In this document: positions 52,433 through 54,634 of the stretch, one piece after another
Numbering within the stretch: the stretch's first letter is position 1
Layout of the letters: each line of letters opens with the position of its first letter
Assembly: GCA_000091205.1 (NCBI GenBank)
Contig: AP006484.2
Origin: Cyanidioschyzon merolae
Lineage: Eukaryota
DNA: 64,000 nucleotides
Reading direction: 5' to 3' (one strand)
Translations under genes and position numbers: made by a program
Notes under the pieces: generated by a model
What the model saw: the letters and a program-made list of their open reading frames with translations, nothing else
Told to the model about the DNA's origin: nothing
Databases searched by the model: none

Positions 52433-53230
52433 ATGGAAGAGCAAGTCGACGATCCTGGAGGCCCAGGGTCGCAGGCTGCCAGAAAAAACAAAAAAACAGT
52501 GCCGAGTCCAGAAGAAAAGGAAGAGAAGAAGACCCAAAGGGGGAAGGTCCTACGTCGAAGGCGGCAGGAAAGACGACTGTACAACGAGATGGTGGTGAAT
52601 ACCTCTCTTCTTGGACATATCAAGGATCCGTACGAGCAAAATTTGCGAGACGCTATCAGAAACCGTGTCGATTCGGACTCCAGGAGTATTATAGAGGCGT
52701 CGCCAGGACTGATGCATTTAGCGAGGGAGGTGTATCGCGACGTGACGCACATGGAAACGGTCGAGATTCCGGACGAGCTCTTCGACCAGACTTTTATTCG
52801 TCACCTAATGCTTGGCACAGGGGAAGCGCGGAGGGGAAATGAGCGGGTGCAAGTCCTCCACGAAAACTTCGCGGAATTCCGCTTCGAGGGTAATCGATAC
52901 AGGGGTGACGGGGATATTTACATACGCGGCGCCATGAAGTACCTCACGAATCTGAAGAACCATTTAACAGTGAACCTCGAACGTTTCATGATACGCACCG
53001 AGTTTGCACTTTACCCGGGCATCTCTCGCAAGGGGATATCGGCGATGATCAATGGAATCACGAACGATCGCCAGCGAGAAGATGAGATCAAGTTCGTTGA
53101 CAAGAAGCCGTCACACAGGAGCATGAATGAAGTCTCTGTAATCCGTGCGCCTATACAAGAGCACCGTGCAGTCTTGGGGCTGGCGAATCCAACAGACAAG
53201 ATATCAGAGTTGAAAAATGATAAGGAATGA
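52433..53230 (+). CDS. N-terminal segment of the TnpB/Fanzor-like protein (Lys/Arg-rich NLS-like N-terminus followed by helical REC-like region)
   Basis: ATG start. KNKKTVPSPEEKEEKKTQRGKVLRRRRQERRL is a strong bipartite NLS-like stretch, and Fanzor proteins characteristically carry N-terminal NLS/disordered regions. The segment is in the same frame as 53585-54634 but is separated from it by stop codons. Confidence 0.35.
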   Translation: MEEQVDDPGGPGSQAARKNKKTVPSPEEKEEKKTQRGKVLRRRRQERRLYNEMVVNTSLLGHIKDPYEQNLRDAIRNRVDSDSRSIIEASPGLMHLAREVYRDVTHMETVEIPDELFDQTFIRHLMLGTGEARRGNERVQVLHENFAEFRFEGNRYRGDGDIYIRGAMKYLTNLKNHLTVNLERFMIRTEFALYPGISRKGISAMINGITNDRQREDEIKFVDKKPSHRSMNEVSVIRAPIQEHRAVLGLANPTDKISELKNDKE

Positions 53231-53584
53231 TGTTATCCCCTCATCCTACGCTACTTCGTGCTTCTGGAACGAGAGCTCGAACGCAAGGCGGAGATGAAGC
53301 TGAGTAAGGAAAAATGAAGTGTCGGAGAGACGAAAGGCTGCGCTTCTGACGAACCGCTTCAGTGTCGTTCCAATGTGCAACATCAAGTCACATTTCGTGA
53401 GTATCGATTCCGGCGTCCTTTACGGCATTATGAGGCAGATCTGTCCGGAGTCCAATGTGAGCAGGGAGGAGTTCTCCGGTGAAAACCGGGAGACGTACTG
53501 GAAGAATATCTTCGATTTCAAGCGTCTCAAAGTGAGCAAGCAAAAGGTATTCACGGGAATGATCGGGACCGATGGAGTCGCCAT

Positions 53585-54634
53585 GTGTGTACACTATCGG
53601 CGGTTGAAGACAGATCGTCCGTTCCGTCCTCGACTTCGCCCTCGGCGAAGCATGGAGAAAAGAAGGAGGCGGATCCTGCGACGCTGGAGGTGGAGGATAA
53701 CGACTTTGTGGTAGGCGTGAACCCCGGGAACACGAATATCGCAACCATCACAGCACCCAAGCGTGCAGAAGATGGTACTGATGGTAACTTGCGTCAGAAA
53801 GATATGCGTCTTTTGAGATTCTCGAGAGCGAGATACTATCGAGAATCCGGTATAATGAATGCAACGAAGAAAATCGAGACGAGGAACGCAGGAATGAGGG
53901 ATATCCTGGAAGCTATGAGCGAGGTGACGAGCCGCGGAGCGGAATTTCAAGCTTTTCGGGAGTTTATGGAAGTTCGTGTTGCCCATTGGGATGCGCTGTG
54001 GGAAGAATATACAAAGACCCGGTGGGCTCGTCTGTGTATGAACGTGCACTGTGGTAAGCAGCGTGCATTCGCGAACTTTTTCAATCACTTGAGCGCCCAC
54101 AAAGAAGATGAAAGTCAGAGGCTGTTAGTAGCATTCCGGGCAGAGCGCTGGAAGACCCAAAAATGGACTACGCCAGCTCCAACTACAAGAACGTTCAAGG
54201 AGTGCGCATGGCGTTTTGTTCCGATACCTGTAAATGAGTTCCGAATATCCTATACACACCATGAACTGGGATGCACACTTCAGAGGGTCGAATTGGAAAC
54301 GTGCCAGCGGAGCAATGAGGATATAAAAAAGTACGAAGCGCTGACAGAAGCGCTAATGAAAAGGAGGGCGAAAGTTCGTGGACTACTTGCGCTGGTGAGC
54401 GCAACCAATGATGGGAAAAAACGTATGGAGTTGGTGAACCGAGTCTTTAACGCAGCTATCAATATAAGGAAATGTGCGGTGCTGGAGAATAGACCTCCAG
54501 AGTGGACAAGAGAGAATCATACGGGGCAACCTCTCAAAGTGGAACGATATGAGAAAACGTTGGAAGCAGTAGTGGGTGGCCGGTCGAAAAAGACGGAGAG
54601 ACGTCTGCACGTCAGTTGGAGACGTCTTGTCTAG
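53585..54634 (+). CDS. C-terminal RuvC-like segment of the TnpB/Fanzor-like protein with catalytic-site substitutions
   Basis: [17 protein letters not shown] aligns with the TnpB/Fanzor RuvC-I motif vvG(I/V)DpG..N.atl, with N in place of the catalytic Asp. [13 protein letters not shown]...TKKIETR aligns with the l.r.lsRkkkgS.nr.K block. [10 protein letters not shown] aligns with the RuvC-II i.iEdLnvkgM block, with Leu in place of Glu. [27 protein letters not shown] aligns with L.YKAE..G..v..V.P.YTSQ.CS.C, where the first Cys of the zinc knuckle is Phe. [12 protein letters not shown] aligns with the RuvC-III motif D.NAA.NI, with Val in place of Asp. Confidence 0.5.

Follow-up and report, generated by a model that had tools for sequence, protein, structure and literature searches.

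The closest described system to the locus analysed here is CMe-1A, a transposon family of Cyanidioschyzon merolae whose consensus was published by Bao and Jurka (2013, Mob DNA 4:12; PMC3627910), who reported about 150 copies, each ~80% identical to the consensus, and an intact protein still encoded by some of them. The family is mildly interesting in that it was long-lived, has mosaic 5' regions and shows neither a zinc finger nor terminal inverted repeats or target-site duplications; all of these points had already been raised in 2013 (PMC3627910). Among the Fanzor1 proteins of known structure, SpuFz1 has D383, E541 and D606 as catalytic residues, and its host S. punctatus harbours many ORF-less 'ghost' Fanzor elements that retain the omega-RNA region (PMC10432273). 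Fanzor-type proteins have a rearranged RuvC-II glutamate, which immediately precedes the position of the zinc finger (PMC10711439).

The window, i.e. the whole stretch of 64,000 nucleotides of contig AP006484.2 (assembly GCA_000091205.1) that we analysed, carries at 51486-54700 a whole transposon copy of ~3.2 kb, with approximate ends and, like all the features of the element described below, on the + strand. The locus is a CMe-1A Fanzor1 transposon relic, already known as a family, and we estimate at about 95% the probability that 51486-54700 is an old, dead copy of this Fanzor1-encoding element of C. merolae. In BLAST comparison, window positions 52204-54659 align to the CMe-1A consensus over its positions 676-3135, with 86.7% identity over 2462 bp, and the conceptual protein of the window copy follows the 734-aa CMe-1 protein, as published, in a colinear way. 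The same comparison found no match in the window to consensus positions 1-675. In their place the window has a variant non-coding 5' region (51486-52203), not of the TE-N2_CMe type of the published consensus, which is 80-84% identical to the sequence preceding the Fanzor ORF in seven other copies (L025, L066, L084, L014, L079, L077 and L011). As the TE-N2 part is missing from many CMe-1A copies, the window copy is a structural variant that still belongs to the family. Its 5' end was set where the homology to copies L025, L066 and L084 starts, at TAGGCTCTTGAAAC, and the homology of its 3' end to many other copies extends to about 54692-54701. To our knowledge, neither a transposase nor terminal inverted repeats or target-site duplications have been described for CMe-1A. 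The family was long-lived in the 16-Mb genome of C. merolae, and the locus is one among more than 80 similarly decayed copies. The window also encodes an ATP-citrate lyase identical to BAM78932.1 / XP_005535218.1 of C. merolae 10D, and a tRNA scan over its full length gave no hit.

Three ORFs of the + strand, at 52433-53230 (frame 2), 53319-53714 (frame 0) and 53585-54634 (frame 2), are colinear parts of one TnpB/Fanzor-type protein. The N-terminal remnant comprises a K/R-rich, NLS-like stretch (52484-52576) and a helical REC-like part, and ends at a premature TGA (53228-53230); the middle remnant, in a shifted frame, comprises a conserved FTGxIxTDGV block (53550-53603); and the C-terminal remnant, which contains the RuvC domain, aligns to CMe-1 residues roughly 395-734. 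This last ORF (349 aa) is still open and, judged on sequence alone, a fragment may be expressed from it. When looked up by exact match, ORF1 corresponded to no annotated gene product on record. Using a profile built from distant relatives only (Z=1e6), we found that the N-terminal, middle and C-terminal ORFs match the profile positions 4-228 (E 5e-40), 256-344 (E 3e-25) and 345-620 (E 1e-65), respectively. A profile comprising the family member P0001 and 77 distant relatives matched PpFz1 (9cf0, E 4e-22), SpuFz1 (8gkh, E 1e-13) and GtFz1 (9cer, E 7e-8); these matches came after the distant relatives had been added, a close-family-only profile giving no match among PDB sequences. When the three window ORFs were scanned against Pfam and NCBIfam, no relevant match emerged, and the sole Pfam match on close homologs was a sub-threshold Cas12f1-like_TNB. 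The structure was predicted with AF2 for P0001, a paralogous copy, rather than for the broken window copy, with a pLDDT of 81.8 and a pTM of 0.80 using an alignment of 78 diverse sequences (a shallow alignment of close paralogs yielded a pLDDT of 34). The best Foldseek match of this model was SpuFz1 (E 5e-15, TM 0.58/0.72), and the top seven matches, with E values from 5e-15 to 3e-12, were to SpuFz1, PpFz1 and GtFz1; Cas12f and Fanzor2 came next. The family member is accordingly predicted to have the RuvC-WED-REC fold of Fanzor1 and TnpB. Together, the profile matches and the Foldseek match of P0001 to SpuFz1 bear out the proposal of a TnpB/Fanzor-like RuvC protein, made in the sequence-only reading of this DNA, which had also described the ORFs in differing frames and the K/R-rich NLS-like N-terminus that we find; the three ORFs are Fanzor1 (TnpB-like) sequence.

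The same reading had proposed that all the catalytic residues are substituted (N/L/V), and this held for the N and the V only. The GVNPG sequence at 53714-53728, rightly taken for RuvC-I, is the DPG motif of the family (GADPG) with its aspartate replaced: according to the consensus alignment, the catalytic codon at 53720-53722 has become Asn (AAC; D431N in CMe-1 numbering). This aspartate is invariant across 78 relatives and present in nearly all other copies, and in SpuFz1 the IDPN block, with the catalytic D383, aligns to its position. Similarly, the terminal NAAINI does belong to RuvC-III, since 54434-54466 is the NRDxNAAxNI motif (FVNRDFNAAINI in the family), the catalytic codon of which, at 54443-54445, encodes Val (GTC; D672V, consensus alignment); the aspartate is present in most other copies, and its counterpart in the alignment with SpuFz1 is the NRD block, with the catalytic D606. 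The RuvC-II glutamate is retained as GAG at 54236-54238 (E603 in CMe-1 numbering), within the VNEFRIS sequence (VDEFRTS in the family). All 78 relatives have this glutamate, and the block aligned to it in SpuFz1 is DEYKTS, with the catalytic E541. The catalytic triad of the window copy is N/E/V, not N/L/V. The leucine was wrongly assigned because RuvC-II had been placed in the wrong block, the Fanzor1 glutamate being relocated: LCMNVHCGK is the family block WARLRMNLYCGKQRAF, which has no catalytic residue, the assignment of LVAFRAE to L.YKAE does not hold, and neither does that of the PxYTSQxC block, the TSQ equivalent being at 54230-54274, the block that holds the relocated glutamate. More generally, by-eye alignment to the canonical D/E/D spacing of TnpB misplaces the catalytic glutamate of Fanzor1 proteins. 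The strand at 54122-54151 (family consensus LVVAYGAGRW), which we propose as the canonical RuvC-II position, is presumably equivalent to the RuvC-II strand of TnpB; the family has no glutamate there, and the window copy carries G570R and G572E. The supposed replacement of the first zinc-finger cysteine by Phe proved baseless. The family consensus itself reads HHELGC...LLALVS, with no CxxC pairs, and PF07282 matches 16 of the 78 relatives only; the absence of a CxxC...CxxC zinc finger (Cas12f1-like_TNB / OrfB_Zn_ribbon) characterises the family and is not peculiar to this copy.

The search for paralogous copies, which had been recommended, yielded many of them, and at least 40 keep D/E/D, the N and V substitutions being private to the window copy. 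With 21% of its codons replaced, the chance that at least two of three given residues are lost is ~0.11. When a transposon family has many copies, neutral decay is expected to replace catalytic residues in an individual member.

The window copy is a pseudogene, as indicated by the following lesions. First, the premature TGA at 53228-53230 corresponds to R266* relative to the consensus. Second, the consensus alignment shows a 2-bp deletion at 53310 (53309-53311, consensus position 1783), which shifts the frame, and a 1-bp deletion at 53621 (53620-53622, consensus position 2096), which restores it. Third, in the pairwise consensus alignment, a 2-bp deletion at 52921 is offset by a 2-bp insertion at 52932, and this compensating pair (52921-52933) scrambles ~4 codons. 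Fourth, there are 151 amino-acid replacements as compared to the CMe-1A consensus. Across both shift sites the frame is continuous in the other copies and in the 734-aa consensus protein, which rules out splicing as an explanation for the frame changes, and the suggestion that these might be introns was not upheld. At least one stop or frameshift occurs in 90 of the 90 sampled copies, none of them being intact, and the positions of the stops are scattered among copies (as checked in 11 of the 90).

The ortholog of the element in a related strain (L097) is 98.7% identical to it, with 33 differences in 2441 bp, including two new 1-bp indels. The adjacent ORF shows one difference in 738 bp (Fisher p = 0.002 against the element) and the other flanking sequence 27 differences in 1699 bp (p = 0.6 against the element), i.e. 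the element diverges at the intergenic rate, ~10x that of the neighbouring gene. The substitutions are distributed as 13/5/4 over the three codon positions, with no third-position excess. To judge from this comparison, the decay is neutral, and is not domestication. Another candidate ortholog, L098, was set aside; the dense cluster of differences in its first 350 bp suggests a chimeric assembly with another copy. As a point against the dead-copy reading, we counted, relative to the consensus, 96 synonymous and 151 non-synonymous codon changes, the synonymous ones being over-represented, and 132 differences at third positions against 78 and 64 at the other two. In this comparison, which lumps together the divergence before and after insertion, the synonymous excess shows purifying selection in the past, a pattern that would follow from divergence accumulated in part by the active source lineage, before the copy was made.

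These data bear on both fates that had been considered for the locus. Domestication into an RNA-guided DNA binder of the Fanzor/TnpB type that has lost its nuclease activity, as in TldR or dCas12, and that is produced through splicing or programmed frameshifting, would account for the replacement of the catalytic aspartate at two positions, for the 349-aa ORF that remains open over the RuvC domain, and for the occurrence of the insertion in related strains, which implies that the locus is not very recent. We nevertheless regard it as barely credible, given that the in-frame TGA and the two frameshifts fall where the other copies and the consensus stay open, and that the shifts are 2-bp and 1-bp deletions, unlike intron insertions, in an organism with very few introns. 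Moreover, the ortholog has diverged as fast as intergenic DNA and has two additional indels that shift the frame, without any excess at third positions; the N/V substitutions are private to a locus that belongs to a multi-copy, long-described transposon family whose other copies have D/E/D; and conserved glycines of the RuvC core are changed as well (G570R, G572E). A decaying Fanzor pseudogene, the other fate, is the one that the premature stop, the frameshifts and the neutral divergence support.

The element ends with a short non-coding 3' tail (54635-54700) homologous to the 3' ends of other copies, where the end of the omega-RNA scaffold would be expected. Although dead as a protein gene, the copy might conceivably still act in trans, as a 'ghost' element whose 3' end (~54500-54700) would be transcribed as an omega-RNA, with a guide encoded by the flank and running into the promoter/5' region of the host gene at 54708-55445, and loaded onto the Fanzor1 protein of an intact copy. 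Such a role would be consistent with the terminal ~100 bp, which are still recognisable up to about 54700, with the 'ghost' elements of S. punctatus, which keep their omega-RNA region in the absence of an ORF (PMC10432273), and with the intact protein of some CMe-1A copies (Bao and Jurka, PMC3627910). If it were true, the many decayed copies would together supply a pool of guide RNAs, much like the Spizellomyces 'ghost' elements. We consider it very improbable on the following grounds. The omega-RNA-like structure sought at the 3' end did not emerge, since single-sequence folding gave no significant structure (z = -1.6), consensus folds of 36-42 decayed copies (alifold, column shuffles) gave helices of 4-6 bp only, and the Rfam gathering search of the whole window gave no match. 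Furthermore, conservation within the element is lowest in the 3' tail (majority-base frequency of 0.80, versus ~0.90 in the ORF), a search for an excess of third-codon-position conservation near the 3' end showed just a weak flattening (consensus 2941-3030), and 0 of the 90 sampled copies is intact.

We return to the dead CMe-1A copy, for which we propose the following course. An intact CMe-1A element encodes a 734-aa Fanzor1 protein, which, by homology to SpuFz1, PpFz1 and GtFz1, would be an omega-RNA-guided RuvC DNA endonuclease. After its insertion, the window copy would have gained the nonsense codon, the two frameshifts and ~150 replacements, the catalytic aspartates being lost in the process (D431N/D672V). 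We regard as shown the homology, the membership in the family, the lesions and the neutral rate at which the copy now changes; that intact members of the family are active RNA-guided nucleases, as well as the way in which the element moves, is what we infer. Beyond annotation the locus matters little, and it should be masked as a CMe-1A (Fanzor1) relic, not presented as a dead-nuclease gene.

As compared to CMe-1A as published (PMC3627910), the window copy comes from the same genome (C. merolae 10D), has the same motifs and a divergence typical of the family. It differs in lacking the TE-N2_CMe-type 5' 635 bp of the consensus, in having another 5' region of ~720 bp that is common to a subset of copies, and in its stop, two frameshifts, D431N and D672V. 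With SpuFz1 (PDB 8GKH, 9CEU-9CEZ), PpFz1 of Parasitella (9CF0) and GtFz1 of Guillardia (9CER), the CMe-1 family shares a predicted fold, a catalytic arrangement (DPx in RuvC-I, the relocated glutamate in DE(F/Y)(R/K)TS and NRD in RuvC-III) and a K/R-rich N-terminus. The sequence identity is just about 11-15%, SpuFz1 keeps a CxxC...CxxxxC zinc finger that the CMe-1 family does not have, and the window copy is non-functional. Finally, TldRs are, as far as is known, intact, conserved, single-purpose genes that evolve under purifying selection and have a cognate guide RNA. The sole likeness of the window copy to TldRs, nuclease-dead TnpB regulators and dCas12-like binders resides in catalytic RuvC substitutions within a TnpB-superfamily scaffold, whereas the window copy, one transposon copy among many, has a disrupted reading frame and evolves neutrally.

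Three plus-strand ORFs, namely ORF 1 (52433-53230, frame 2), ORF 2 (53319-53714, frame 0) and ORF 3 (53585-54634, frame 2), gave no relevant match when scanned one by one against Pfam and NCBIfam. Using their conceptual join, we found 37 strong homologs, all of which are JGI metagenome gene calls; the top one, P0001 (752 aa), is 63% identical to the joined window protein at 92% coverage. In the protein alignment, the homologs cross both frame changes of the window in one continuous frame, and they have FVNRDFNAAINI where the window copy shows an altered 11-residue RuvC-III stretch.

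From the following profile and structure matches, and the consecutive profile segments matched by the ORFs, we regard the identification of these ORFs as Fanzor1 sequence as solid, in keeping with the TnpB/Fanzor-like identity proposed by the sequence-only reading. First, a full HMMER scan, covering 1.84 billion representative proteins, returned 1508 relatives at E 0.001 or better, and the profile of a 78-sequence alignment (P0001 and 77 relatives, 23-39% identical to it) matches the solved Fanzor1 proteins of Parasitella (PpFz1, 9cf0, E 4e-22), Spizellomyces (SpuFz1, 8gkh, E 1e-13) and Guillardia (GtFz1, 9cer, E 7e-8); a profile of the close family only matched no PDB sequence. Second, the IDPN, DEYKTS and NRDM blocks of SpuFz1, the catalytic residues of which are D383, E541 and D606 (PMC10432273), align with GxDPG, VDEFRT and NRDxNAA in the family, the first Asp and the Glu being invariant and the last Asp kept in at least 90% of the 78 sequences. 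Third, the AlphaFold2 model of P0001 built from this alignment (pLDDT 81.8, pTM 0.80) has SpuFz1, PpFz1 and GtFz1 as its seven top Foldseek PDB matches (E 5e-15 to 3e-12; TM 0.58/0.72 versus SpuFz1), followed by Cas12f, Fanzor2 and other Cas12 proteins. Fourth, a profile made from the 77 distant relatives only was matched in consecutive segments by ORF 1 (positions 4-228, E 5e-40), ORF 2 (256-344, E 3e-25) and ORF 3 (345-620, E 1e-65).

The family has been in print since 2013 as CMe-1A, a Fanzor1 family of the C. merolae genome numbering about 150 copies with ~80% identity each to a 3169-bp consensus that encodes a 734-aa Fanzor1 protein; it lacks terminal inverted repeats, its target-site duplications could not be determined, and its 5' 635 bp are another repeat, TE-N2_CMe (Bao & Jurka 2013, Mob DNA 4:12; PMC3627910). 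Using the consensus DNA and protein from the supplementary files of that paper (PMC3627910), we aligned consensus 676-3135 with window 52204-54659 (86.7% identity, 5 gap openings), and found the joined window protein to be colinear with the family protein CMe-1 from the first residues (MEEQVDDPGGP versus MEKEVEDPGGP) to the last (HVSWRRLV versus HVSWRRFV). The window copy extends beyond the 52433-54634 first assigned to it: upstream homology begins at 51486 (TAGGCTCTTGAAAC), and homology to other copies reaches ~54692-54701 on the 3' side. Its ~720-bp 5' region (51486-52203), common to copies L025, L066, L084, L014, L079, L077 and L011 (80-84% identity), bears no relation to the 5' 635 bp of the published consensus, which are of the TE-N2_CMe type, and other copies carry a third, A-rich variant, so that the family has mosaic 5' regions. 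In L025 (375-505), L066 (2875-2990) and L084 (2873-2988), a ~90-bp CMe-1A 3' tail lies ~25-50 bp upstream of the next copy's 5' start, which looks like tandem or adjacent insertion beside the 3' end of an older copy. Elsewhere, window 6173-6350 weakly matches (72.6% over 179 bp) consensus 84-256, a TE-N2_CMe repeat fragment.

Measured against the CMe-1A consensus, the plus-strand window copy carries a premature stop (R266*, TGA 53228-53230), a compensating indel pair (loss of 2 bp at 52921, gain of 2 bp at 52932) and two frameshifting deletions, of 2 bp at 53310 and of 1 bp at 53621; its codon changes comprise 151 non-synonymous and 96 synonymous ones. The deletions at 53310 and 53621 are genuine, the homologs reading continuously there, and account for the frame 2-0-2 pattern. 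Of the three catalytic substitutions previously claimed (N/L/V for D/E/D), D431N (AAC 53720-53722) and D672V (GTC 54443-54445) are real, and D602N, G570R and G572E also affect catalytic or core positions, whereas the E-to-L change was a mis-alignment: E603 is intact (GAG 54236-54238). A 12-residue block had been wrongly taken as RuvC-II; since the Fanzor-type RuvC-II glutamate is rearranged to a site that precedes the zinc-finger position by six residues (PMC10711439), it falls in the DEFRTS block. The "L.YKAE" and "PxYTSQxC" assignments were likewise off, the TSQ-like block being by position the 15-residue stretch at 54230-54274. Nor is "Cys to Phe" a meaningful change, because the CxxC...CxxC zinc finger is absent from the family consensus itself.

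Such lesions recur throughout the sampled copies. Scanning JGI metagenome contigs gave 365 relatives, from which we kept 80 loci, and at least one stop or frameshift occurs in 90 of 90 copies aligned to the consensus ORF, at scattered stop positions in the 11 copies checked. Nearly all of the 90 keep D431, E603 and D672; V672 occurs in no other sampled copy, N431 alone recurs in one (L072), and the two are combined in none but the window copy. At a replacement level of 21% of codons, two or more out of three specified residues would be lost by chance with a probability of ~0.11, which makes the double catalytic hit unremarkable.

The same locus in a closely related strain (L097; 98.7% identity over 52219-57096) bears on the two fates envisaged earlier, a decaying pseudogene or a domesticated nuclease-dead protein. 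Both strains share the stop, the two frameshifts, N431 and V672, which thus predate their split. The element has 33 differences in 2441 bp, including two additional 1-bp deletions (52490 and 54413), versus 1 in 738 bp for the adjacent ORF at 54708-55445 (Fisher p = 0.002) and 27 in 1699 bp for the rest of the flank (p = 0.6); within the coding remnants, codon positions 1/2/3 take 13/5/4 of the 22 substitutions. At present, the element is evolving as intergenic DNA does. Relative to the family consensus, differences by codon position are 78/64/132, and the best explanation of this synonymous and third-position excess is selection that acted on the source lineage before the window copy arose. 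We therefore reject domestication as a dead nuclease for this copy, which is broken, is one of many decayed copies and itself diverges at a flank-like rate; the pseudogene reading is supported by the stop, the frameshifts and that intergenic-like divergence.

Directly downstream, where a search for an omega-RNA-like transcript had been advised, lies the conserved host ORF, which encodes 245 aa and has no recorded Pfam family, rather than a non-coding RNA. As this ORF is strain-conserved and starts only a few bases past the element's 3' end, the element lies within or beside the region upstream of it. Rfam gave no match in the window, the 3' 300 nt folded no better than shuffles (z = -1.6), third-codon-position conservation did not rise towards the 3' end, and consensus folds of 36-42 copies had helices of 4-6 bp only. 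On neutral relics such as these copies the test is a weak one, but it gave no sign of a functional RNA at this locus. The element and neighbouring genes are flanked by a 2406-bp inverted repeat (43028-45433 and 56809-59214; 98.5% identical, arms 11.4 kb apart) with no long gene-like ORF in its arms, as judged from their ORFs. The window also holds an ATP-citrate lyase gene (34623-36596, minus strand; exact match to BAM78932.1 / XP_005535218.1 of C. merolae 10D, which confirms the window as C. merolae DNA) and a tandem array (62749-63080; ~4 copies of an 83-bp unit, 96-97% identity).

Directly upstream of the RuvC-I motif, a 75-bp (25-aa) unit (..ATQEVEDNDLVVDAAKHEEKKEA..) is present singly in the window copy (53640-53715) and tandemly repeated 1 to ~5 times in the family, depending on the copy (alignment A1, columns ~430-560; P0001, P0006 and P0010); this stretch is disordered in the AlphaFold2 model (pLDDT <50, P0001 residues 384-469). 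Only 16 of the 78 aligned relatives match Pfam Cas12f1-like_TNB. The whole CMe-1 clade, including relatives from green algae (for example, a protein of Tetrabaena socialis), lacks the CxxC...CxxC zinc finger (CMe-1 ~603-672, alignment A3), whereas SpuFz1 keeps it.
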